Below are positions 3,761 through 50,293 of a stretch of 64,000 nucleotides of DNA, piece by piece. The stretch covers positions 13,080-77,079 of the forward strand of contig JAUSGQ010000044.1 in assembly GCA_030674455.1 (NCBI GenBank), given 5' to 3'. This stretch comes from a bacterium (lineage in GTDB: Bacteria; Patescibacteriota; Minisyncoccia; Phycocordibacterales; UBA2100). Every line of letters starts with the position of its first letter. The stretch's first letter is position 1. The notes under the pieces were generated by a model, which worked only from the letters and a program-made list of their open reading frames with translations, was not told the DNA's origin and searched no databases. Made by a program: the position numbers and the translations under genes.

Positions 3761-4636
3761 TCAGGATGAATAAAGTAGCCCTATTGCAAGGAATGATACG
3801 ACAATCGCGAGTATTTTGCGAAGGTTGATGTGGTCTTTATACCACCATACGGAAAGGACGATTGGTATAAGAATATAGTGCGCATGGATGACATACACGA
3901 GACTGACGAGGCCGGTAGTTAATGCCTTAATAAGTGTATACGTGGCAACAGTACCGAGGGCTGCTGCAATGAATCCTAGGTAAACATCCCTTTTGTCGAA
4001 TGTGATTCCTTGGGAAAGTCGAGTCCCTCTCTGCTTTACGAGAATTGCCGCGGAAGATACCGTACCTGCAATCTGCGATATTCCCACAATGAATAAGGCG
4101 GCCGATTCATATGAAGTCGCTTGTTTAACGAAAATCACCGAAGTTGCCGTGAGAATGGTCGAGAGAACGACGAATATCATTCCCTGACGCAGGTTGTTCT
4201 GACGATGATGTTCGGCCGAAGAGATGAGAAGAAGAGGTACAAGAAAACTCGTCCCGATTCCAATGTATTGTTGAGTCGTAAGCGGGTCACGCAACAGCAG
4301 TACCCCTAATATTACGACTAGGAGCGGTCCTAGAACCTTATTTATCGGGAAATATATAACGCTATCGATATGTTTTAGAGCTTCAATACGAAAGTAATTC
4401 CCGATTCCGTGTAGCGCTCCGCTTGCCAGCGCAAAAATTCCTATAATGAGCCATGCGCTCGGCACATCAGAGTAAAGGAACAAAATAATGAAAACTGTTA
4501 TGGCAGAAAACCCGTACATCAAGAGTCCGTTGAAAGCCGAGTCCCTTTTTTCTTGCGCGACAACTTTCTGGAAGAATAACTGTATGCCGCCAAATATAGT
4601 GGCAGCAATTGTCCAATAAAATGTCGTTTGGTCCAT
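3761..4636 (-). CDS. EamA/DMT-family transporter
   Basis: 291 aa, about 10 TM helices in a two-fold EamA-like arrangement. Confidence 0.65.
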   Translation of the reverse strand: MDQTTFYWTIAATIFGGIQLFFQKVVAQEKRDSAFNGLLMYGFSAITVFIILFLYSDVPSAWLIIGIFALASGALHGIGNYFRIEALKHIDSVIYFPINKVLGPLLVVILGVLLLRDPLTTQQYIGIGTSFLVPLLLISSAEHHRQNNLRQGMIFVVLSTILTATSVIFVKQATSYESAALFIVGISQIAGTVSSAAILVKQRGTRLSQGITFDKRDVYLGFIAAALGTVATYTLIKALTTGLVSLVYVIHAHYILIPIVLSVWWYKDHINLRKILAIVVSFLAIGLLYSS

Positions 4637-4717: not shown

Positions 4718-6223
4718 TTACTCTTTGCGCGGAAAGAGGTTCTCGGGCTTTTTATTCCTTTTTATTGCATCAAGAATCTTCTCACTAGTTGATGGCATGC
4801 AGGGAGCAAGAAGGTAAGCAATTGAAGCTACGTCCCTCACAAATACAGATAAAACAAGACGCCCAAATTGAGGATCTTGTTTAATGATTTTAAACGGTTC
4901 TTTTACGGATATAGCTTTGTCTAACTCTTGAATTCTATTCCATATACTATCCATTGCGCGACTTACCTCGAAGGTTTCGAGGGCTTGTTTATACTTTTTG
5001 ATATATTCCTCATCAACATAAACATTCATATCTGGTAGCTCAGCTGGACTATCGAGGTATTTCTCTGACAGGGCCATGACTCGAGACACAAAGTTGCCTA
5101 ATCCGTTAGCAAGATTGGCGTTGTAGGCTTCCTTAAATTTCTCCATCGTGAAATCGGAATCTTCGAACGGATGAATATGACGCGCGAGATAGTAGCGCAA
5201 AGCATCAGCGCCGTATTCATCCACTATCGCTATCGGGTCGATGACATTTCCGAGCGATTTGGACATTTTCTGGCCGCCGACATTAATGAAACCGTGAATG
5301 AGTATTTGTTTTGACGGGGGCAAACCGGCCGACATGAGCATCGCCTGCCACATCGCCGCCTGTTGCCGTATCTGGTCTTTCCCAGCCATTTGAATGCCGT
5401 TTGGCCGTTCAACTGTTCCCCAAAACTTGGTGAAGTTTGCCTCGTCGTCAGGCCACCCGAGTGTTGAAATGTAATTTATGAGCGCATCAAACCAGACGAA
5501 CATCACATGCCCTGGATCATCCGGAACTGGAACGCCCCATGGCATTTTCTTTTTGAGGCGGGAAATGCTGAAGTCTTCCAGTCCCGTTTCTACAAATTTC
5601 TTTATCTCGTTGAAACGAAAATCCGGCACTACCAAATCCGGCTGCTTCTTGTAAAGCTCAAGCAGCTCCTTTTGATACTTTGACCAGCGGAAAAAATAGT
5701 TCTCCTCGTTGATGAGTTCGATTTCAAGGTTCGGATGTATCGGGCATCGGCCGTCCACGAGTTCCGAATCCGTTTTTTCCAATTCGCACCCGACGCAATA
5801 TTTCAGCTGATAATTTTTCTTGTAGATGTCGCCTTTTTTGAGACATCGGCGCCAAAATTCCTGCGCCGCCGCTTTGTGGTCTGCATCGGTAGTGCGAATA
5901 AAGTGCAGGTCTGGATAGAGATTCAGCTTCTCTTTGAGATTCCGGAATTTGTCGGCGTACTCGTCCACATACTTTTGCGTGTTTTTCCCCTCTTCAAGCG
6001 CTTTGCGATGAATTTTGATTCCGTGTTCGTCCGTCCCAGTATTAAAGAAGACTTCGTCCCCGCAGAGCTTGTGATACCGCGCAGCGATATCCGCGTGAAC
6101 TATCTCAAGCGCGAAACCGATATGCGGTTCCGCGTTCACATATGGAAGGGTGGTCGTGAGATAAAAGTTTTTGCTTGCCCCGTTAGAGGCAGGTCGCGAC
6201 TGTGTAGATTTCTGTGAAGCCAT
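4718..6223 (-). CDS. metG: methionine--tRNA ligase
   Basis: HIGH-type motif (PHIGF), KMSKS, and zinc-knuckle cysteines. ATG at 6221-6223 (MASQKST..) preferred; the longer ORF to 6298 uses TTG. The N-terminus is encoded inside a duplicated inverted-repeat module. Confidence 0.9.
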   Translation of the reverse strand: MASQKSTQSRPASNGASKNFYLTTTLPYVNAEPHIGFALEIVHADIAARYHKLCGDEVFFNTGTDEHGIKIHRKALEEGKNTQKYVDEYADKFRNLKEKLNLYPDLHFIRTTDADHKAAAQEFWRRCLKKGDIYKKNYQLKYCVGCELEKTDSELVDGRCPIHPNLEIELINEENYFFRWSKYQKELLELYKKQPDLVVPDFRFNEIKKFVETGLEDFSISRLKKKMPWGVPVPDDPGHVMFVWFDALINYISTLGWPDDEANFTKFWGTVERPNGIQMAGKDQIRQQAAMWQAMLMSAGLPPSKQILIHGFINVGGQKMSKSLGNVIDPIAIVDEYGADALRYYLARHIHPFEDSDFTMEKFKEAYNANLANGLGNFVSRVMALSEKYLDSPAELPDMNVYVDEEYIKKYKQALETFEVSRAMDSIWNRIQELDKAISVKEPFKIIKQDPQFGRLVLSVFVRDVASIAYLLAPCMPSTSEKILDAIKRNKKPENLFPRKE

Positions 6224-6294
6224 GGGATTAGTCAGGTGAGAATGAGCAACTTGAGATTGGAAATTGTTTTGCGCGACCGCGGCCTCTAATGGGG
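6177..6294 (-). promoter_or_regulatory. start-codon-spanning inverted-repeat module, copy A (CCCCGTTAGAGGC...GCCTCTAATGGGG) at metG
   Basis: 13-nt arms ~85 nt apart. Downstream arm encodes SRPASNG of MetRS. Second copy at 50178..50293. Confidence 0.6.
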
Positions 6295-6300
6295 ACAATG

Positions 6301-18080: not shown

Positions 18081-18731
18081 TTATGACGTGATCCGTTTGA
18101 TTGCAGAAAAGGCGCGATCGATATCTTTGTCAGCAAAAATAGTGCTGAATTCTGTCCCGATAGACATGACTTCCACGAGACTGATGCCATCCTCCGCAAT
18201 CGCTTTCAAAATCGGGTAGTACAGCCCCGGCACATTTAAGCTCGGCTCCGGCAGGCGCATGGTAATGGCCGAGAGGCCGCCCACTCGTTTCAAATACTTC
18301 TGATTGTCGAACGATGCCACCACTTCTTTTTCAATCTCTTGGCTCACGATAAGAAGCGACTCGTAGAGTCCGCGTGAAAAGTTGAGGAACACGCCTTTTT
18401 TATTTTTTGCGATGCGCGAGATCTTTCCTAATACGCCGGATAGATCTGCCGAGTTCGGAAAAACGAACTGCACCAAATTCGAGCGCACCGTGATGTCGCT
18501 CATCTGTTTTAAAAATCGCGTTCCGTACGGAACAACTTTGTAATCTTTCGCTATCCGGTGGAGTGCCATCGCGATTGACCCTTCGGAAACTTCCTCAAGC
18601 AAGATTTTCTCCACTTCAGGTTTTATCCTGCGGGCGATTTGCGCGTTGTTGGCCAACCCCTCGGCCATCGCCTCGGCTAGGAAGGGCGACCGGTGGATTA
18701 TGCCTTCAACGACTTGGCTTACAGTTCTCAT
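18081..18731 (-). CDS. hypothetical protein (possible ACT-like regulatory domain at C-terminus)
   Basis: 216 aa, divergent from asd-lysC. The C-terminus ISLVEVMSIGTEFSTIFADKDIDRAFSAIKRI resembles aspartokinase ACT ends. Its start codon coincides with the end of MITE copy 1. Confidence 0.5.
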   Translation of the reverse strand: MRTVSQVVEGIIHRSPFLAEAMAEGLANNAQIARRIKPEVEKILLEEVSEGSIAMALHRIAKDYKVVPYGTRFLKQMSDITVRSNLVQFVFPNSADLSGVLGKISRIAKNKKGVFLNFSRGLYESLLIVSQEIEKEVVASFDNQKYLKRVGGLSAITMRLPEPSLNVPGLYYPILKAIAEDGISLVEVMSIGTEFSTIFADKDIDRAFSAIKRITS

Positions 18732-18871
18732 ACCCGGTTAGTACAATTTCGAATAATTCCTGCCGTAGATGCGCCAGCGAATATTTGGAAAGACTGCTTA
18801 ATCAATTTTCTTTTCATATGATGTTGATTTGTTCATAACAAGGCGATTCGAAATTGTCCTACCGGGCATAT
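18729..18871 (+). mobile_element. MITE copy 1 (gene-less derivative of the GIY-YIG TIR element) with CATA target-site duplication
   Basis: TIRs CCCGGTTAGTACAATTTCGAAT (18733..18754) and ATTCGAAATTGTCCTACCGGG (18846..18866). Flanking direct repeats CATA at 18729-18732 and 18867-18870. The interior keeps an MPGRTISNR... remnant of the GIY-YIG ORF. Confidence 0.8.
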
Positions 18872-18983
18872 CGTTACAATTATAACAAACTGGTACAATT
18901 CTGTCAATATTCTCAAGAAATTTGGCTAAAAACGCGTTCGGGCGCACTATTGCCTCTTCTTAATAAATAGTAGCTTAATTACT

Positions 18984-20081
18984 ATGGCAAAAACAACACA
19001 AAAACTTTCCGTAGGAATTCTCGGCGCCACCGGCATGGTCGGCCAGAGATTCATAACATTGCTTGAAAACCACCCATGGTTTGAGGTACGTGCGGTTGCC
19101 GCATCAAGGAGCTCTGCGGGAAAGACCTACGCGGAAGCGGTTAAGGGCCGCTGGAAATATCCGACGCCGATTCCTTCGAGCGTGCAAGACTTAATCGTCT
19201 ACTCCGCCCCCGACGACGTGGAGAAGATAGTGAATCATGTGGACTTCGTATTCTCGGCAATTGAAATGGACAAGCATGCAATCCAAACCCTTGAAGAGTT
19301 GTACGCTTCGCGCGGAGTGCCGGTAGTTTCCAACAACTCCGCTCACCGATGGACAGCCGATGTGCCGATGATACTGCCCGAAGTAAATGCGTCCCATCTC
19401 GCCATGATTCCCATCCAGCAAAAAAATCGCGGTTGGAAGACGGGATTCATTGTCGTCAAACCGAACTGTTCGGTGCAATCATATATTCCCGCGCTAGAGG
19501 CGCTCAAACGTTTTGGTCCGCAGAAAGTGATTGTTTCAACTCTTCAGGCAATTTCGGGTGCAGGAAAAACCTTTGAAACAATGCCTGAAATCCTCGACAA
19601 CGTTATTCCCTACATCGGGGGCGAGGAAGAGAAATCGGAAAAAGAACCGATGAAAATCTGGGGTAGCATTGTGAAAGGAAAATTCAAACTCGCTACCGCG
19701 CCGAAAATCTCGGCCACCTGCATCCGAGTTCCCGTTGCCGACGGGCACATGGCATCTGTCGCGGTTTCATTCAAAACAAAACCGACCCGAGACGCAATCC
19801 TTAAAGCGTGGCGAACATACAAAAGCCCGCTCTCGGGGCTCGGCCTTCCATCAGCACCTGAAAAATTCCTGACGTACTTCGAGGAAGATAATCGCCCGCA
19901 GACAAAACTCGATCGCGACATCGGGCGCGGCATGGGTGTCTCCGTCGGCCGTCTGCGCGAAGACCCGATACTGGGATGGAAATTTATTTCGCTTTCTCAC
20001 AACACCATCCGCGGTGCAGCAGGCGGAGCCGTCCTCGGAGCAGAACTCTTAAAAGCCAAAGGATACCTGAAAGCCAGATAA
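18984..20081 (+). CDS. asd: aspartate-semialdehyde dehydrogenase
   Basis: [14 protein letters not shown].. N-terminus and an active-site Cys region. Confidence 0.9.
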
Positions 20082-20089
20082 ATTAATGT

Positions 20090-21445
20090 ATGGAAAAAAC
20101 TCCCAGCAACATCGTCATAAAATTCGGCGGCACTTCGGTCGCTACCAAAGAAGCGGTCCACGCAATCATCGCGATAGTTAAACGATACCGGAAATCGAAT
20201 CCCGTTGTCGTTGTTTCCGCCCTTCGCGGCGTAACCGAAGGATTGCTCGGGCTTTCCAAATGCCCTAAAGCCCAGCTTCCAGGCCGTATTTCGGCTCTGC
20301 GTGCCATGCATCAAAAATTGGCTTCCGACCTCTTCCCTACAGATAAAGACGTGGCCGAGGTGATGGCATATGTGGATGAGCAGCTCGCCGCAACGGAAAA
20401 AGTCGCGCGCAAAGGACGATTCAATCCCGCAGCTATGGACCAGCTCGTATCCGCCGGAGAAATCATGTCGTCATTTCTCATCGCAAAAGCGCTTGAGACG
20501 AACGACATCGCGTCAAGGCAGGTAGTCTCGACAGAAATAGTTGCTACCGACGACAATTTCATGCAGGCGGAATTCCAACCGAAAGAGACGGAGAAAAATG
20601 CGCGGAGAATTCTTGCCCCGCTTATTCGCCGCGGCATCGTTCCTGTCGTTACCGGATTCTTGGGTTCAACAAAAAAAGGACAGACGACCACGCTCGGACG
20701 CGGCGGCTCTGATTACTCCGCATCTATAATCGGGCGCTCGCTAGATGCAAAAGAAATACAAATTTGGACGGATGTCGACGGAATCTTTACGGCCGACCCG
20801 CGCGTCGTTAAAAACGCGCGCATTATTTCCGACATATCGTACCGCGAGGCGTCCGAAATGGCCGCGTTCGGAGCAAAAGTCTTGCACCCGAGAACCATCA
20901 GGCCGGCAGTCGAAAAAAACATTCCCGTGCGCGTACTCAACACTTTTAATCTTAAAGCTTCGGGAACCCTGGTGAGCCCGCGCTCAACCGGAACGGGACT
21001 CAAAGCGATAGCGTTCAAAAAAAACGTTGTGCTCGTCAACGTTTACTCGGATTCAATGCTTTTCTCGCGCGGATTTCTCGCCCGCATGTTCGAGGTATTC
21101 GCACGGCATCAGATCTCAATCGATTTGGTCTCGGTCTCCGAGGTAAGCGTTTCTGTAACTTTAGATAGCAACAACGGACACCTTGATGCCGCGGTAAAAG
21201 AACTGGAAGCGTTCTCCAAAGTGAGCGTACACAAAGATAGCTTCGGGATGATATCGCTCATAGGAGAGGGAATCGCCTCTGCGCAGGATATAATGACGAA
21301 TGTATCCGCACAGTTTAGCCGTCATCGAATTCCCCTGCGGATGATCTCTATGGGAGCGTCTGACATCAATATCAGTTTGGTAATACCCGCGGCAGATGTC
21401 GTGCGCGCGGCCAACATGGTTCACGATGAATTCTTGAGAAACTAA
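20090..21445 (+). CDS. lysC: aspartate kinase
   Basis: VIKFGGTSV.. N-terminus and C-terminal ACT domains. Confidence 0.9.
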   Translation: MEKTPSNIVIKFGGTSVATKEAVHAIIAIVKRYRKSNPVVVVSALRGVTEGLLGLSKCPKAQLPGRISALRAMHQKLASDLFPTDKDVAEVMAYVDEQLAATEKVARKGRFNPAAMDQLVSAGEIMSSFLIAKALETNDIASRQVVSTEIVATDDNFMQAEFQPKETEKNARRILAPLIRRGIVPVVTGFLGSTKKGQTTTLGRGGSDYSASIIGRSLDAKEIQIWTDVDGIFTADPRVVKNARIISDISYREASEMAAFGAKVLHPRTIRPAVEKNIPVRVLNTFNLKASGTLVSPRSTGTGLKAIAFKKNVVLVNVYSDSMLFSRGFLARMFEVFARHQISIDLVSVSEVSVSVTLDSNNGHLDAAVKELEAFSKVSVHKDSFGMISLIGEGIASAQDIMTNVSAQFSRHRIPLRMISMGASDINISLVIPAADVVRAANMVHDEFLRN

Positions 21446-21448
21446 TTG

Positions 21449-21588
21449 TATGCCCGGTAGGACAATTTCGAATCGCCTCATATGACTATTCGCCATCACA
21501 TGAAAAGAAGATTGTTGGAGCGGTCGTTACAGATGTCCGCAGGTGTAACTACGGCAGAAATTATTCGAAATTGTACTAACCGGGTATG
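21449..21588 (-). mobile_element. MITE copy 2 (inverted relative to copy 1) with TATG target-site duplication; exactly fills the lysC-dapB spacer
   Basis: TIRs CCCGGTAGGACAATTTCGAAT (21453..21473) and ATTCGAAATTGTACTAACCGGG (21563..21584). TATG at 21449-21452 and 21585-21588; the latter contains the dapB ATG. Confidence 0.8.
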
Positions 21589-22326
21589 AACATTGCACTG
21601 CTAGGACATGGAAATATGGGGCTGGAGATCGAACGGCTTGTTCGGGCTTCCGGCACGCACACAGTTTCCGTAATAGGAATGGAGGAGCCAAGCGGCGCGA
21701 TAGATACAGCTGGCCTCAAAAACGCCGAAGTTGTAATCGATTTTACGTCGCCGGAAATAGTGATGAACGATATTCGCACCGTGGCAAAAGAGGGGAAAAA
21801 TCTCGTCGTGGGAACTACGGGATGGCAGGAACACCTGCCGGAGGTGGAAAAAATCGTTCGCGAGAGCGGAATTGGCCTGATTTACGGCCAGAATTTCTCG
21901 ATAGGCGCGAATATCTTTTTCCGCGCGGTAGCTCATGCGACAAAACTATTCTCTGCATTTAAAGACTACGATGTGTACGGTTTGGAAATTCACCATGCCG
22001 GGAAAAAAGACAGTCCATCGGGGACTGCCCTGCGGACCGCGCAAGAAATTCTGCAGAACTCAAGCACCAAAAAAATCCTAACGACAGGTAAACTCGACAG
22101 AAAAGTACGTCCGGAAGAACTGCACTTCGCGTCCGTGCGAGGCGGCGTGAATCCCGGATTCCACGAAGTGGTTTTCGACAGCCCCGCCGATGCGGTTACT
22201 ATTTCTCATTCCGCGCACAACAGGGAGGGATTTGCGCAGGGCGCTATCCTTGCGGCAGAATTCATTCAAGGGAAAAAAGGCCTGTTTACATTTGATGACG
22301 TGATGAAAGCTCATGGCATAAAATAA
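21586..22326 (+). CDS. dapB: 4-hydroxy-tetrahydrodipicolinate reductase
   Basis: NAD-binding N-terminus (IALLGHGNMG) and HHAGKKDSPSGTA motif. Confidence 0.9.
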   Translation: MNIALLGHGNMGLEIERLVRASGTHTVSVIGMEEPSGAIDTAGLKNAEVVIDFTSPEIVMNDIRTVAKEGKNLVVGTTGWQEHLPEVEKIVRESGIGLIYGQNFSIGANIFFRAVAHATKLFSAFKDYDVYGLEIHHAGKKDSPSGTALRTAQEILQNSSTKKILTTGKLDRKVRPEELHFASVRGGVNPGFHEVVFDSPADAVTISHSAHNREGFAQGAILAAEFIQGKKGLFTFDDVMKAHGIK

Positions 22327-23218: not shown

Positions 23219-23415
23219 AGAAATTGTTATGCGCGAAGCAAATTACAAGTTCTTTACCCGCCCAAATTTCCAGCTCCAATCTGGTATGCACGGAACAACG
23301 TCTTCAGAGACCCATCTACACAGATTGCCGAAAGCAATGACATTAGCGGAAGCAGGAAATTTAGGCGGGTCTAAGATTTATTAAGCTCGCTTCGCTTACT
23401 AATTAAATCTAAGAC

Positions 23416-43801: not shown

Positions 43802-46180
43802 TTATGCTTTGTTATCCCTTTTGGCAAGATAGGACGCAAGGCCGCCCGGGCGCGAATATGCAAATACATTTTCGATTCCTGCATCTCTGGCAAGTACAAT
43901 CACTGCTTCAATTAGGCGCTGAGAGACTGGCGCATCGTCGTGAATGCGCACATCACCTTTAGGCTCCGGGTATTGCAGAAGCATGTTGTATCCGAGAGAA
44001 CTTTTGTCTTCCGGCCGGCCATTCGGGATGAGACCGACGAAATGTGCGCCTTCCGAAAGCCCCGCCTTCGGCTTTTGGTGGAATTTAAAAACGGCATCCT
44101 GCGGAACGTACGCGAGCACTTCTTTTTCCGAGGGCCGTCTACAGGTGCCGATGCCTATCCCATCGGCCATTTTAGAAACTTCCGGCACCGGCCTCGGCCT
44201 ATAATCAGCACTGCAGATTGAAATGCAGACGATATTTTTTCCCTGCGGAGCTAATACTTTCGGCGTAAGGAGTTCATCGTAGGTGATGCCGAGCAATTCT
44301 TTGCCCGAGAGGTCGGTGCGCACGAGCGCGATCTGCCCGGCGATGTGTTCGGCACTTGGCCGATGGGTTGGCATCGGCACCTGTCGACGGTCCGCGGCAA
44401 GAATAATGACCTGCTTCGGGATATTTTTTTCATACGCGGTCTTTTCCGCCATGAGCGGCTCCCAGCAGTGGTTGTAAAGTTCGTACGATTCCTTAACCCA
44501 TCGCGAATACCGATGAAGCACCGTGAAGCGATACTCCGGAGTTTTAAACAATCCATAGATCGATTCAAAGCTCTCGTATGGAAGCTGCTGTTTAAGGATT
44601 GTACGCTGAACTTTTCCCGTCGAGGTCGTCGGGAGTTCCGCGACAGTCATCGAAGTGATGTACTTCGGCGTTTCGTATGCGCTCAAGTACGGCGTACCGC
44701 ATAAAAGCGCCAATTTGAGCCGTCTTTTGGCGGCATCAGTATCAACTCCCTCTTTCCACGAAATCACGGCGCCGCATTCCTCGCCGTAGCGCTCATCGGC
44801 TACCGACACAACGTGAACCTGCGCGATGTCGGAAGATATTTTCTTGAGAGAATTTTCCACGGCAATCGGCGAAATGTTGATGCCGCCTTTGATGATAATT
44901 TCGCGCTTGCGCCCTTTGAGATAAAAATACGGCCTCCCCTCCTCAATGCGGAAATAGCCGATGTCGCCCGTCAAAAAATATCCGCGTGCCTCTGTAGGCA
45001 GGTCGCAAAACGCAGGCTCGCCGCCGACATACCCTTCCATCAAGGCTTCGCCTTTGACGATGATTTCTCCTTCTTCTCCCTCCCCCTGGAATTTCCCATT
45101 CTCATCTGCAATGCGCACATCCGCCCACGACATCGGAGCGCCGATCGAGTTTTCTTCCACGAGACGTTCATACAACTCTTCCGATAGTCCCATCGGCACG
45201 CCCGTCACGCGAAGCGCAGTTTCCGTCTGCCCGTATCCCTGATAGAGCGAGATGCCGAATTTCTTTCTGAATTCTTGCACCGTGCTGGCGATGACGGGAG
45301 CCGAACCTATCTGTATGCGCGAGAGAACGACATTTTTTCTCACCGCTGCGTATTCTTCCTCGCGGTTCAACTGGTCAAAGAGAATTGACTGCACGATAGA
45401 TGTAATCGTCGCGGAGGTCGCGGCTATCTGCTGCCAGAAGTGCGAGTTAGAGTATGCTGGTGGAATCGCGATGGAGCCGCCGGCAAGCAGCATCGCGAGG
45501 CAAAAGGTCGTTGAGTTAATGTGGTGCAGCGGGAGATTGACCAGGAACCTGTCTGTCTCGGTAATTCGAAGCCACTCGCCAATAGCCTCCGCATTGACGA
45601 TGAGATTCTTGAGCGAGAGCTTCGCACCCTTCGGATGCGCCGTCGTGCCGGAAGTAAATAAGACGAGAGCTTGATGCGAAAGCCCCGTTTCCCAAACAAC
45701 CTCTGTATCCTGCTTTTTAGGAAAGTCTGAAAATTCTTTGATATTCACTCCGCTTAAATGCGATTTATCTGCGTCTTTGAGCAAGCCTTTCTGTGCTACT
45801 AGTACTTTCGCACCGTTCAGTTTGATTTTGTATGCGTGCTGTTCGCCCGTGTCGCGTTTCGTGTCGAGCGGAATAGTAATGATTCCGGTACTCCACGCCG
45901 CCCACGAGATTATGAGAAGTTCGGCAGAATTCTTGAACGCGAGCGCGGCCCTGTCCCCTTTGCGCAGGCCCAATTCAGACAGATAGGAGGCAGCTGATTC
46001 CACTTCTTTAGCCAGCTCCCCAAAATTTATTTCACGCAGGATTTTCCCGGTCTCATCGCAACTCACAAGAGCTGCGCGAGAAGGATGCATTTGAGCAAGA
46101 TGTGCGATATGTTCGTGCAGACTTTTGATGCGTTTTTCGTGCATGTGGCTTACTTTACTCTTGAGGCCTCTTGCGCGCAA
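43802..46180 (-). CDS. acyl-AMP ligase (AMP-binding superfamily) fused to a ~280-aa C-terminal domain of unknown function
   Basis: 792 aa. TSGTTAHPKG, GYGQTE and ..TSTGKVQR.. adenylation motifs occupy the first ~510 aa. The remainder has no recognisable motif. Confidence 0.7.
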   Translation of the reverse strand: MRARGLKSKVSHMHEKRIKSLHEHIAHLAQMHPSRAALVSCDETGKILREINFGELAKEVESAASYLSELGLRKGDRAALAFKNSAELLIISWAAWSTGIITIPLDTKRDTGEQHAYKIKLNGAKVLVAQKGLLKDADKSHLSGVNIKEFSDFPKKQDTEVVWETGLSHQALVLFTSGTTAHPKGAKLSLKNLIVNAEAIGEWLRITETDRFLVNLPLHHINSTTFCLAMLLAGGSIAIPPAYSNSHFWQQIAATSATITSIVQSILFDQLNREEEYAAVRKNVVLSRIQIGSAPVIASTVQEFRKKFGISLYQGYGQTETALRVTGVPMGLSEELYERLVEENSIGAPMSWADVRIADENGKFQGEGEEGEIIVKGEALMEGYVGGEPAFCDLPTEARGYFLTGDIGYFRIEEGRPYFYLKGRKREIIIKGGINISPIAVENSLKKISSDIAQVHVVSVADERYGEECGAVISWKEGVDTDAAKRRLKLALLCGTPYLSAYETPKYITSMTVAELPTTSTGKVQRTILKQQLPYESFESIYGLFKTPEYRFTVLHRYSRWVKESYELYNHCWEPLMAEKTAYEKNIPKQVIILAADRRQVPMPTHRPSAEHIAGQIALVRTDLSGKELLGITYDELLTPKVLAPQGKNIVCISICSADYRPRPVPEVSKMADGIGIGTCRRPSEKEVLAYVPQDAVFKFHQKPKAGLSEGAHFVGLIPNGRPEDKSSLGYNMLLQYPEPKGDVRIHDDAPVSQRLIEAVIVLARDAGIENVFAYSRPGGLASYLAKRDNKA

Positions 46181-46865
46181 TTATCAGAAGACCGGTTCCG
46201 AATGGCAACGAAATGAATCTTATGAGCATAGATTCAATTTTTACAACAGCGAAAAAAATCGCGTTGAGTAAGCGCGGCATCCTCAAAGAGCTGTCGCCTG
46301 ACCTTCCCAAGAGGCGCATGAGCGCGGCAGGAATGAAAAGCAGCATGTTCCAGTAACTCGCGTATTCAACTTCAAATCCGGCGTCATTCAATACAGCGCG
46401 CATTGAGGCTTTCGTATACCTTCGGAAATGATGGTGGTTAACATCATGAATGCCCCAGAGAAATTGGAACGCGGGCACTGTTATTGCGAGGTGGCCGCCG
46501 CTCTTTAGCGCCCCGTGGGCTTTTACCAGAAACTCCCTGTCATGCTCGATGTGTTCAACAACATCAAATAGCCCTATCAAATCGTACGCTCGTCCCAGTG
46601 CCTCGCTTTCAGTTGATAATGCACGCAGATAGCCGCGCTTGCTGGCGGCTTCTCGCGCTTCCGCATCCGGCTCGTAGGCATATATATTCTTTCCGATGCG
46701 CGAAAGGTCTTTATACATTCCTCCGTAACCCGCGCCGAAATCAAGAACATCTTCTGCCCGCTTCGCGCCGCACTTCGCAAGCCCGGCGTGAATTGCCGCG
46801 GCACGGCCTCGGTACCACCAGGATTTCTCCATGTCACTCAAAAGTTTAAAAGCGTTTCTCTCCAT
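46155..46865 (-). CDS. class I SAM-dependent methyltransferase
   Basis: VLDFGAGYGG motif I. The start ATG lies inside the left terminus of the GIY-YIG element. Confidence 0.8.
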   Translation of the reverse strand: MERNAFKLLSDMEKSWWYRGRAAAIHAGLAKCGAKRAEDVLDFGAGYGGMYKDLSRIGKNIYAYEPDAEAREAASKRGYLRALSTESEALGRAYDLIGLFDVVEHIEHDREFLVKAHGALKSGGHLAITVPAFQFLWGIHDVNHHHFRRYTKASMRAVLNDAGFEVEYASYWNMLLFIPAALMRLLGRSGDSSLRMPRLLNAIFFAVVKIESMLIRFISLPFGTGLLIIARKRPQE

Positions 46866-47172
46866 ACCCGGTTAGTACAATTTCGAATTATTCCGTCCGT
46901 AATAATCTTTCAATCGCTTTGCAAGAAAGCGACGGCCTCCCGTGGTTTTGAAATATTGTTCTCGACGTTTTGCGTCAACCAGAGAACGACATGCTTCGTA
47001 GTACGCAAGTATAAAAGGCCGTCGTGGTGCTGTGGCAAAACTTTTACCCTGCTGGTGTTGATCCATGCGCTTTCGCAGATCACTCGTATATCCAATATAT
47101 TGCTTATAGTCTTTCATACTCTGCAAGACATAGACATAATAAAAGCGATTCGAAATTGTCCTACCGGGCATA
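46863..47172 (-). mobile_element. TIR-bounded GIY-YIG element (autonomous-looking copy): 22-bp terminal inverted repeats, 4-bp CATA target-site duplication, single 99-aa GIY-YIG gene
   Basis: TIR-L CCCGGTTAGTACAATTTCGAAT (46867..46888), TIR-R ATTCGAAATTGTCCTACCGGG (47148..47168). CATA at 46863-46866 and 47169-47172. The first 8 codons of the GIY-YIG ORF (MPGRTISN) are encoded by the TIR itself. Confidence 0.8.
46872..47171 (-). CDS. GIY-YIG nuclease family protein (YhbQ/UPF0213-like)
   Basis: YYVYVLQS..YIGYTSDLRKRMDQHQQGKS..RRPFILAYYEAC..AKRREQYFK matches the GIY-YIG motifs. Confidence 0.8.
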   Translation of the reverse strand: MPGRTISNRFYYVYVLQSMKDYKQYIGYTSDLRKRMDQHQQGKSFATAPRRPFILAYYEACRSLVDAKRREQYFKTTGGRRFLAKRLKDYYGRNNSKLY

Positions 47173-47174
47173 TA

Positions 47175-47876
47175 TTATTTTGAAATTACGTTTCTAATTC
47201 TAAACATGGCCCGTAAAGCACCGACACTGTCACGCAAAAGAACAAGTTTGCTTTTCCTGTCTTCGAACCGGTGTTCATTCCAATGAACCGGCACTTCTTT
47301 GATGCTAAGCCCTGCACGTTCAGCGCGCGCAAGAAATTCCATATCAAGGAACCATCCCTTTTCCGTACAGCCCGCAAGGATTTTTCTCCCTCGCGCATTC
47401 ATTATCTTCAGCCCGCACTGGGTATCTTCCACACTCCTCACCCCTACTATCATCTTTCTCAATATGTTGAATGCCTTGGATGACAGCGTTCGAAATGCGC
47501 CGCGCTTAACCATCGTGGTTTCGATAAGGCGCGAACCGATTGCAATATCAAAACCGCTCTTCTCTACCAACGGGAGAAGGTTCAGGATGTCTTCGGGGTC
47601 TGCGGAAAGGTCGGCATCAATAAATCCGAAAAAATCAGCGCCAGAATGGCGCGCGGCAGCGGCGACAGCCGCTCCCTTTCCCCGTATAGGGATTGATAAG
47701 ACGGATACGCCTGGAATGCCCTTTGCGGCGCTTGCCGTACCGTCCGTTGAATCATTGTCGGCAACAATGACAGCAACATCCTCGCCTGTTTTTTGAAGTA
47801 CGCGCAGTACCGCGCCCGCAGATTCCGCAATAATGCGCTCTTCGTTGTAAGCGGGAATGCAGATTTCAATGGCCAT
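47175..47876 (-). CDS. family 2 glycosyltransferase (polyprenyl-phosphate sugar synthase-like)
   Basis: CIPAYNEERIIAESA..VADNDSTDGT..IDADL; DPM1-like GT2. Confidence 0.85.
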   Translation of the reverse strand: MAIEICIPAYNEERIIAESAGAVLRVLQKTGEDVAVIVADNDSTDGTASAAKGIPGVSVLSIPIRGKGAAVAAAARHSGADFFGFIDADLSADPEDILNLLPLVEKSGFDIAIGSRLIETTMVKRGAFRTLSSKAFNILRKMIVGVRSVEDTQCGLKIMNARGRKILAGCTEKGWFLDMEFLARAERAGLSIKEVPVHWNEHRFEDRKSKLVLLRDSVGALRAMFRIRNVISK

Positions 47877-49395: not shown

Positions 49396-50223
49396 CTACA
49401 TTCTTCCATGATCATCCTCAATGCGCACGATGTCGTCCTCGCTGAAATCTCCGTAGGCAACTTCTACAACGACCCCACCGTACTTGGAGAACAGCCTGTG
49501 TACCTGCTTTTTCACGACCCGGAAGACTTCGCCTTTTTTGAGCGCGACCGTCCGCTTTCCGGAAGAATCATGAACAATCGCGGAAGCATCGCCTTCCACG
49601 AGCAACCACCACTCCTCGCGGTTATGGTGGTACTGCAGGCTCAAGCGTTGCGCCGGTTTTATGTAGATTGTTTTCAGGTTCCACCCTTCTCCGTTATCCC
49701 ATCCGTAATATTCACCCCACGGGCGCACCGTCTTGGATGCGTGGCGGCGCGAAGCCTTAATCATCCACGACGACGATTGCACTTTGCCGCCCTCGCCGAC
49801 GTTGAAAACCATTCTTGTGCCGAGCTTTTTGCATGTGGCTACTTCCGGTATGTTGCTTTTGAATCGGTCCCCGCCGTTGGCAAAAACAGCCGGCTTCAAT
49901 TTCTCTATCGCACGGCATACGCTCGTATCAACATCCCCCTTTTTGTGGTCGGTAATCACCACCTTATCTACAGTGGGCAACGAGCGCAGGAGTTCGGCCC
50001 GCTCTTTCTGCGGCATGAAAACAAATCCCTTTTTTGCCTTCAGCCAATGGTCATTATTGAGTATCACCACGAGTCTGTCGCCGAGCTTTCGGGCCTCCTT
50101 GAACATGCGGATGTGTCCGATATGCAGCGGATCAAAGCCACCGGAAACGGCTATCCAGCGAGTTGAGTTCTTCTTCACCCCGTTAGAGGCAGGGCGCGGT
50201 CGTTTTGATTCTTTGGTATTCAT
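49396..50223 (-). CDS. cytidylyl/adenylyltransferase (HIGH nucleotidyltransferase) fused to a cupin domain
   Basis: IAVSGGFDPLHIGHIRMF (HxGH), then a C-terminal cupin (..LQYHHNREEWWLLVEGDA..). The N-terminus MNTKESKRPRPASNG is encoded within the duplicated inverted-repeat module. Confidence 0.7.
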   Translation of the reverse strand: MNTKESKRPRPASNGVKKNSTRWIAVSGGFDPLHIGHIRMFKEARKLGDRLVVILNNDHWLKAKKGFVFMPQKERAELLRSLPTVDKVVITDHKKGDVDTSVCRAIEKLKPAVFANGGDRFKSNIPEVATCKKLGTRMVFNVGEGGKVQSSSWMIKASRRHASKTVRPWGEYYGWDNGEGWNLKTIYIKPAQRLSLQYHHNREEWWLLVEGDASAIVHDSSGKRTVALKKGEVFRVVKKQVHRLFSKYGGVVVEVAYGDFSEDDIVRIEDDHGRM

Positions 50224-50293
50224 ACTGACATCAATAGTATTGATACGTTGCCGTTCTTAAGATATGTAAGTGCGGCCGCGGCCTCTAACGGGG
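50178..50293 (-). promoter_or_regulatory. start-codon-spanning inverted-repeat module, copy B (CCCCGTTAGAGGC...GCCTCTAACGGGG) at the cytidylyltransferase-cupin gene
   Basis: Same arms with a diverged spacer. Downstream arm encodes RPRPASNG. Confidence 0.6.

Follow-up and report, generated by a model that had tools for sequence, protein, structure and literature searches.

Insertion of a short inverted-repeat element at gene start codons in Patescibacteria and its derivation from a 302-bp GIY-YIG nuclease element

In a 64-kb stretch of a patescibacterial contig (JAUSGQ010000044.1, positions 13,080 to 77,079; hereafter the window), the genes asd and lysC lie between two short inverted-repeat copies of opposite orientation. 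We conclude, with a probability of roughly 0.78, that these copies are independent insertions of a transposable element of the miniature inverted-repeat type (MITE), which arose by internal deletion from a 302-bp element whose sole gene encodes a 99-aa single-domain GIY-YIG nuclease, and that this family, present in Kaiserbacteria and other Patescibacteria, lands on gene start codons and would be translationally coupled to the genes that it precedes.

Three copies with common ends in the window

The pattern of the terminal inverted repeat (TIR), CCCGGTWRGKACAATTTCGAAT, was scanned over the whole window with up to three mismatches, and 100 shuffles served as the control. Six matches were found (18733/18846, 21452/21563, and 46867/47148) against 0 expected from the shuffles, and they form three inward-facing pairs. 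The TIRs of 21/22 bp are common to the two small copies (copy 1 and copy 2) and the 302-bp element. A preliminary description of this DNA had proposed two copies of ~135 bp with the 22-bp TIRs of the GIY-YIG element, and both are borne out, with boundaries at 18733-18866 and 21453-21584. An nhmmer scan of the window with the family profile returned the three known copies and no further or degenerate ones.

Copy 1 (18733..18866, minus strand, 134 bp) matches the MITE profile with E=1.9e-34, and its TIRs in element orientation are CCCGGTAGGACAATTTCGAAT at the 5' end and ATTCGAAATTGTACTAACCGGG at the 3' end. It is enclosed by two target-site duplications (TSDs) that read TATG on the minus strand. 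The ATG of the 5' TSD (18867..18870; ATG 18869..18867) opens a remnant open reading frame (ORF), and that of the 3' TSD (18729..18732; ATG 18731..18729) is the start codon of the adjoining host gene orf216 (18081..18731, minus strand, 216 aa). The alignment of the orf216 product with its orthologues in two other loci (L123 and L154) begins at residue 1; the protein has no Pfam or NCBIfam match. Copy 2 (21453..21584, plus strand, 132 bp; E=2.3e-34 against the same profile) has TATG at 21449..21452, 3 nt past the lysC stop, and again at 21585..21588, where it holds the start codon of the adjoining dapB (21586..22326, plus strand). The DapB protein matches DapB_N from residue 1 and DapB_C as well. 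As had been stated before, copy 2 fills the lysC-dapB spacer, where the sequence runs lysC stop (21443-21445), ttg, TATG, copy 2, T, and the dapB ATG at 21586. The full-length element (46867..47168, minus strand, 302 bp) has the same TIRs and is flanked by CATA at 46863-46866 and 47169-47172, which corresponds to TATG/TATG on the minus strand. The ATG in its 3' duplication (46865..46863) is the start codon of a methyltransferase gene (46155..46865, minus strand).

In element orientation, all three copies are arranged as TATG, element, TATG, and in all three the 3' TSD is the start codon of the host gene (orf216, dapB, and the methyltransferase gene), a point that the preliminary description missed. 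It had rightly given each small copy its own TSD; its distinction between CATA for one and TATG for the other falls away, because CATA/CATA and TATG/TATG are one tetranucleotide duplication on opposite strands, and the same applies around the full-length copy. Copy 1 and copy 2 match in reverse complement over 105 nt at 81% identity and a further 30 nt at 100%, in agreement with what had been reported of their interiors, and the internal strings quoted at that time were found with one mismatch in copy 2. Both begin with the remnant MPGRTISNR, also as described. The profile built from 120 MITEs covers the 302-bp element over its first ~40 nt and its last ~75 nt, and the small copies are thus its internal-deletion derivatives.

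Insertion sites across the family

TIR scans yielded 39 loci from genome collections and at least 120 metagenome loci. Most of the genome loci bear the name Candidatus Kaiserbacteria, and Saccharibacteria or Patescibacteria is the label of some others. The pooled set comprises 131 unique insertion sites from metagenome-assembled genomes (MAGs) and metagenome contigs, with elements of ~130-137 bp at 120 sites, of ~300 bp at 10 sites, and of 163 bp at one. Only two main size classes were bounded by these TIRs, and no larger element was found in 170 loci.

The 3' flank is TATG at 120 of the 131 sites. An ORF of 80 or more codons begins at the 3' ATG of 116 sites; among 4972 other TATG sites of these contigs the share is 24% (binomial p ~4e-55). 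The 121 downstream host proteins fall into 102 clusters, which indicates that most insertions were independent events. Tight operon junctions are the usual setting: 80 of 118 evaluable sites lie no more than 30 nt (mostly 1-6 nt) past the end of a co-directional upstream ORF. Exact TSDs of 4 bp were identified at 86 sites and of 5 bp at 10, and all 5-bp duplications are TATGA, CATGA, or TATGG (e.g., L030, L056, L069, L156, and L157). Where an ATGA-type 5-bp duplication arose at an overlapping stop/start junction, its 5' copy retains the TGA stop of the upstream gene. Rare flank pairs without ATG (TACG/TACG, TGTA/TGTA, GTAA/GTAA, and CATA/CATA) show that the flanks are true duplications lying outside the element. 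The 5' flank is weakly A-rich and G-poor.

Collectively, the element lands on (T/C)ATG, sometimes on (T/C)ATGA, and duplicates 4-5 bp, and the target ATG is almost always the start codon of a gene with which the element is co-oriented. The small copies are MITEs: they are short, lack a transposase gene, have TIRs in common with a coding element, are flanked by varied TSDs, and are polymorphic for presence and absence. The earlier view of them as MITE-type derivatives of the GIY-YIG element, of which there are many copies elsewhere, is thereby upheld.

Empty sites in related loci

The presence/absence polymorphism is directly visible around asd and lysC. One locus (L123) is syntenic with the window at 74-79% nucleotide identity. 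At the position of copy 1 it has a single CATA and a 111-bp spacer. A family member separates its asd stop from its lysC ATG; in the window this junction is unoccupied and reads TAAattaatgTATG, with the asd stop TAA at 20079-20081 and an unfilled TATG at 20089..20092 (plus strand). Further relatives (L175/L176, L177/L178, and L179) were reached through DapB homologues at 83-84% identity. The orf216 site is empty in L123, L175, and L179. The dapB site is empty in L175 and L179, where it reads tatATGAgaatc and atatATGaacatc respectively, and the end of lysC there overlaps or abuts the dapB ATG. Other empty and filled pairs were found at an mreB-like gene (L037 empty, L024 filled) and at the rpsN-rpsH junction (L006 empty, L025 filled). 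Because relatives have empty sites at both positions, and one of them carries a MITE at lysC instead, copies 1 and 2 are two independent insertions. They face opposite ways since each takes the direction of the gene next to it: orf216 lies on the minus strand, dapB on the plus strand.

An exact-protein look-up of the window DapB for population variants returned a single contig (L174, from Logan SRR13727527), which begins 25 nt upstream of dapB and is thus broken at the position of the MITE in the window. The DapB gene calls in relatives (homologues P0122, P0127-P0130, and P0132) range from 236 to 261 aa. These observations suggest that the repeats fragment assemblies and shift predicted start sites, leaving DapB gene calls N-terminally extended or truncated.

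Reading frames through the elements

The nuclease ORF (46872..47171, minus strand, 99 aa) is the sole ORF of the 302-bp element. There is no ATG for it inside the TIRs, and its start codon is supplied by the upstream duplicate, within the 5' duplication. Both ends of the protein are encoded by the TIRs, MPGRTISN at the N-terminus and NSKLY before the stop at the C-terminus. The stop codon TAA lies in the 3' TIR, 6 nt ahead of the host ATG and in frame with it (TAA CCG GGT ATG). On the upstream side, 3 nt separate the ATG of the element ORF from the end of a glycosyltransferase gene at 47175.

The preliminary description had called the small copies gene-less, which is correct in that they hold no transposase gene; they are not free of ORFs, as the family keeps a reading frame that is selected to stay open. 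In copy 2, the ATG of the 5' TSD starts a mini-ORF of 11 codons (21450..21485, plus strand; MPGRTISNRLI and a stop), whose TGA overlaps the next ATG as ATGA. This second ATG opens a mini-ORF of 35 codons (21482..21589, plus strand), and its TGA at 21587-21589 overlaps the dapB ATG at 21586-21588. Throughout the family, MITEs hold either one through-ORF or two short ORFs joined by ATGA overlaps. Of 97 MITEs, 83 have such a relay of short ORFs running from the 5' ATG to that of the host gene; when the interiors are shuffled the figure drops to 16 of 97, and it is 0 of 97 for reverse-complemented elements. Conservation of the internal ATG is at least 90%, and the frame of this ATG is stop-free in 97 of 102 MITEs (0.0018 stops per codon); the other two frames are stop-free in 4 and 36 of 102, and those of the reverse strand in 23-48 of 102. 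The pairwise identity of the interior is just 44%. That the frame stays open while the sequence drifts points to selection on translation itself and not on a particular peptide.

Upstream of copy 1, a putative sigma-70-type promoter was identified at 18879..18907 on the minus strand (TTGACA-17-TATAAT with TG, 12/12 consensus matches), and its -10 box ends 7 nt short of the ATATG that leads into the copy. The TTGACA box is kept in the empty-site relatives. From this spacing we infer that the orf216 transcript would start ~2 nt before the 5' duplicated ATG of copy 1 and would be nearly leaderless, with the MITE ATG first.

The nuclease and its terminal repeats

A PF01541 match over residues 11-79 of the 99 aa (53.5 bits against a cut-off of 22.6; 3e-14) assigns the predicted protein to the GIY-YIG nuclease superfamily; no NCBIfam family scored above its cut-off. 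We retrieved 330 homologues. The residues Y14, Y25, G27, R35, H39, and E71 do not vary among 16 homologues with identities as low as 54%, and the N-terminal MPG(R/S)T(I/T)SN is kept over the same range. The family profile matches the UPF0213 structures 1zg2 (2.6e-11) and 1ywl (4.4e-8) and then SLX1 (3e-4), so that the nearest solved structures are UPF0213/SLX1 and not the I-TevI-type homing enzymes. A tblastn search of a plasmid collection with the nuclease gave only one match, to B. subtilis yazA.

Full-length homologues at 58-68% protein identity have different yet internally complementary TIRs and occupy the same ATG-flanked position. They were found before rplR in a Candidatus Sungbacteria MAG (L171), before folD in a Patescibacteria-group MAG (L172), and before a HAD hydrolase gene in a third MAG (L173). 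As judged from these sequences, the TIRs co-vary with the nuclease lineage.

When folded as single strands, the two small copies form a long TIR stem, with energies of -26 and -24 kcal/mol as DNA and -42 and -46 kcal/mol as RNA (z about -4.2 to -4.9). RNAalifold on 120 copies supported the TIR stem alone, with 20 conserved pairs between the ends, and detected no conserved secondary structure in the interior. No known RNA family was matched in the MITE at E<=1 in Rfam. One pair of the TIRs, at 10/145, is U-A in 79 copies and C-G in 40, and a single copy has it broken; such a switch would fit base pairing or the recognition of identical ends. On inspection, neither element end folds on itself beyond a TTCGAA palindrome of 6-8 nt.

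Other MITE families at gene starts

A second MITE family of ~115 bp, with the TIR CCCGTTAGAGGC...GCCTCTAACGGG, occurs twice in the window (6179-6293 and 50179-50292, both on the minus strand), at the 5' ends of the ORFs 4718..6298 and 49396..50223. From an ATG inside the element, the frame continues across the 3' TIR (...RPASNG) and on into the host protein without a stop, and the copy at 50292 is flanked by ATGAAC and GTGAAG. This looks like a start-codon insertion that would give an N-terminal extension instead of a coupled stop and restart. In L177/L178, other MITE families (1143-1260 and 3854-3969) occupy the same orf216 and dapB start codons, and the copy at the dapB site of L177 has a 39-codon through-ORF with the end TAA CGGG ATG. 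Another family, with the TIR ACCCCGACACTAAGTTTG, sits at the dapA start in L175 (about 4742-4885; also in L176), where its 47-codon through-ORF ends in an ATGA overlap. Start codons thus appear, from these arrangements, to be hot spots for several MITE families.

The window also contains an inverted-repeat element of ~115 bp (23256-23370) in the dapA-aminotransferase spacer (23219-23415), with the arms ACCCGCCCAAATTTCCAGCT and AGCAGGAAATTTAGGCGGGT 90% complementary. It does not adjoin an ATG. The spacer is 197 nt long in the window and ~205 nt long in L177; L175 and L179 have only 1 nt there.

Comparison with known systems

Among described systems, the Ssn family with its NTS-ssnA-NTS arrangement comes closest. 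Ssn enzymes are single-domain GIY-YIG single-strand nucleases of ~94 aa whose genes are flanked by NTS/SRM hairpin repeats; the NTS-ssnA-NTS architecture was said by its authors to resemble an insertion sequence (IS), and for Ssn a domesticated role in modulating transformation has been discussed (Chenal et al. 2025, Nat Commun 16:2388, PMC11893778). Common to Ssn and the GIY-YIG element are a gene for a single-domain nuclease of ~94-100 aa that lies between related repeats, numerous solo repeats in the genomes concerned, and the co-diversification of repeat and enzyme. The 99-aa single-domain size fits Ssn (cd10448), a likeness judged from the published description, and the nearest sequence relatives found are UPF0213 proteins. 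The repeats are built differently: each flanking repeat of Ssn is its own hairpin of 20-50 nt, whereas the ends described here are halves of one inverted repeat. Self-folding SRM hairpins on both sides, the hallmark of Ssn, are absent from the element, each end of which is one arm of a single TIR pair. Unlike in Ssn, the ends overlap the start and the stop of the ORF, with 4-5-bp duplications flanking them. The description of Ssn includes no association with start codons, no TSDs or empty sites, and no translational coupling. In the literature searched, no GIY-YIG-only transposon, start-codon-targeting IS, or MITEs in Patescibacteria or the candidate phyla radiation were described beyond the Ssn paper, and start-codon targeting, TSDs, and translational coupling were not found described for GIY-YIG elements of this kind.

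UPF0213 (YazA/YhbQ; BH0048 1zg2 and EF2693 1ywl) and SLX1 give the best profile matches and have the small single-domain format in common with the nuclease, at a low identity of about 40% over 70% of the protein. To our knowledge, UPF0213 genes are single-copy and of a housekeeping type, without TIRs. SLX1 is a subunit of a eukaryotic structure-specific nuclease.

Bacterial MITEs and their parent IS (Correia/NEMIS, MITEAba12, and the Rickettsia palindromic elements, RPEs) resemble the present family in their short TIR-bounded copies with the ends of a coding parent, their TSDs, high copy number, and presence/absence polymorphism, and the RPEs are likewise tolerated inside translated sequence. 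Unlike in the known MITE/IS pairs, the parent has a length of just 302 bp and codes for no transposase of a known class, the start codon itself serves as target, the ORF borrows the duplicated ATG, and the copies are selected to stay open so that the host gene is reached. IS200/IS605 and REP/RAYT are similar in being very small, with a strict tetranucleotide target, a fixed orientation to it, amplified non-coding repeats, and hairpin-forming DNA as the likely recognition feature. These systems have neither TIRs nor TSDs; they use a Y1 HUH transposase with covalent intermediates and insert 3' of the target without duplication. The present element is not a single-strand transposon of the IS200/IS605 type, as it has TIRs and TSDs and its ORF is a GIY-YIG.

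Proposed mechanism and alternatives

In the mechanism that we propose, the original initiation signals of the host gene, or the upstream cistron, would bring ribosomes into the element ORF, which the upstream duplicated ATG would drive from the initiation context of the host gene. Ribosomes that terminate at the end of the element ORF would re-initiate at the downstream host ATG. Translation through the element followed by re-initiation would make start-codon insertions tolerable and would allow the nuclease to be expressed. For transposition, the nuclease would recognise its own TIRs, possibly extruded as a hairpin or cruciform, a form suggested by its affinity to SLX1/UPF0213 and by the hairpin-guided single-strand cleavage of the Ssn enzymes. 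It would cut the element ends and the (T/C)ATG target with a stagger of 4-5 nt, and the gaps would be filled by host repair. The enrichment at start codons may reflect both target preference and purifying selection, and autonomous copies would also need to gain a start codon.

Several points weigh against this reading. The joining of the ends is the weakest step, and its chemistry would be without known precedent; GIY-YIG enzymes hydrolyse DNA, and we know of none that performs strand transfer. The case for the nuclease as the mobiliser is drawn from sequence. Purifying selection on compact genomes, instead of target choice, could account for much of the enrichment at start codons. No extended target motif beyond (T/C)ATG, and no Shine-Dalgarno signal, was found in the flanks of the family sites. 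A simple 4-bp duplication does not account for the 24 sites with CATG in the 5' flank and TATG in the 3' flank (e.g., L024 5608-5749), a combination that never occurs in reverse; the empty orthologue of that site, L037, reads TATG. Some sites are orthologous and not independent events (e.g., L005 and L016). If not unwound, the TIR stem, which as RNA has a very high stability, would impede initiation at both ATGs. Finally, copy 1 itself has an internal stop (TAA) in its 43-codon frame, which reads MPGRTISNRLVMNKSTSYEKKID, stop, AVFPNIRWRIYGRNYSKLY, stop, and it fails the relay criterion, as do 14 of the 97 MITEs overall.

A broader claim would be that the family represents an unrecognised class of prokaryotic transposable element, in which a lone GIY-YIG nuclease of ~100 aa takes the place of a transposase of the DDE, HUH, serine, or tyrosine kind as the mobilising enzyme. 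Such an element would target start codons, use the duplicated ATG for its own expression, and be rendered harmless by translational coupling. We hold this tentatively, at slightly less than an even chance.

The mobilising enzyme might also be encoded elsewhere. An unrelated transposase in the same genome, for example of an IS family with 4-bp duplications, could move the TIR-bounded elements in trans, with the GIY-YIG ORF as a passenger or an addiction or homing module and not as the source of the mobilising enzyme. DDE transposases typically leave TSDs of 4-5 bp. The observed TSDs are of that length, GIY-YIG nucleases have no known strand-transfer chemistry, and the data cover fragments of host genomes, all of which would suit such a transposase. 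We nevertheless consider it unlikely: among the 170 loci these TIRs bound only units of ~130 bp and ~300 bp, both termini of the nuclease lie in TIR sequence that has changed in step with the protein in distant lineages, and a full-length copy sits in the window beside the MITEs.

It is rather improbable that the small copies are mainly regulatory cassettes selected by the host, in which an mRNA hairpin or a leader peptide tunes translation or mRNA stability and the distribution reflects function and not insertion preference. The presence of the copies varies among close relatives at essential genes (dapB, lysC, mreB, and rpsH) with no conserved requirement seen, the interior has neither conserved structure nor conserved sequence, no Rfam family is matched, and the nuclease-coding copies are laid out alike. 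What such a role would explain is the strong conserved TIR stem, the selected open frame with its conserved internal ATG, the location between the initiation signals and the ATG, and the occupation of these start codons in relatives by several unrelated-looking MITE families. It is compatible with a selfish origin and does not exclude one.

The preliminary description had seen a composite-transposon-like arrangement around asd (18984-20081, plus strand) and lysC (20090-21445, plus strand), which together make up the bracketed segment 18984..21445. As a composite unit, the two inverted MITEs would act together, and asd-lysC would be mobilised or inverted as a block, now or formerly. The copies do bracket the two genes in inverted orientation, 2.6 kb apart, and inverted repeats that are 81-100% identical could in principle recombine and invert the segment between them. 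Each copy, however, has its own duplication, and the outer flanks of the pair, CATA on the left and TATG on the right of the plus strand, do not form a direct repeat. The six related loci (L123 and L175-L179) all keep the order tmk-orf216-asd-lysC-dapB-dapA whatever their MITE content, and this order is identical as far as the aminotransferase gene and lysA in L175/L176, L177/L178, and L179; no rearrangement of asd-lysC was found in these syntenic relatives. Both sites are empty in close relatives while a third, at lysC, is filled in another, and the orientation of the copies is fully accounted for by the genes that they abut. We therefore reject the composite transposon, which we regard as very improbable, and asd and lysC are ordinary resident genes of the operon and not cargo. 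Least credible of all is a free-standing homing endonuclease gene, like seg/mob of phage T4, that spreads by cleavage of empty alleles and recombinational repair: it would suit a GIY-YIG nuclease in an intergenic place within operons, but homing copies into the same locus and at least 102 different host gene families are occupied here, the element has TIRs and TSDs and its non-coding derivatives spread too, and the single-domain protein has no DNA-binding extension (the Pfam match covers residues 11-79 of 99 aa) and is closest to UPF0213/SLX1 among solved structures, not to I-TevI, so that we reject it.

Significance

If independent insertion of MITEs from the GIY-YIG element is correct, the TSDs, empty sites, and non-autonomous derivatives described here would supply the missing genomic evidence for the mobility of small stand-alone repeat-flanked GIY-YIG nucleases, which has so far been just a hypothesis raised for the Ssn family. 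The nuclease-TIR pairs may yield new sequence- or structure-specific nucleases. If the family does represent a new class of transposable element, several MITE families of Patescibacteria would follow the same start-codon strategy, and small nucleases like Ssn and UPF0213 might be transposases or descendants of them. To land on a start codon, take over the initiation signals of the host gene, and hand the ribosomes on would be a parasitic strategy that we did not find described in the literature searched, and it could account for the persistence of repeats in the very compact, operon-dense genomes of Patescibacteria.

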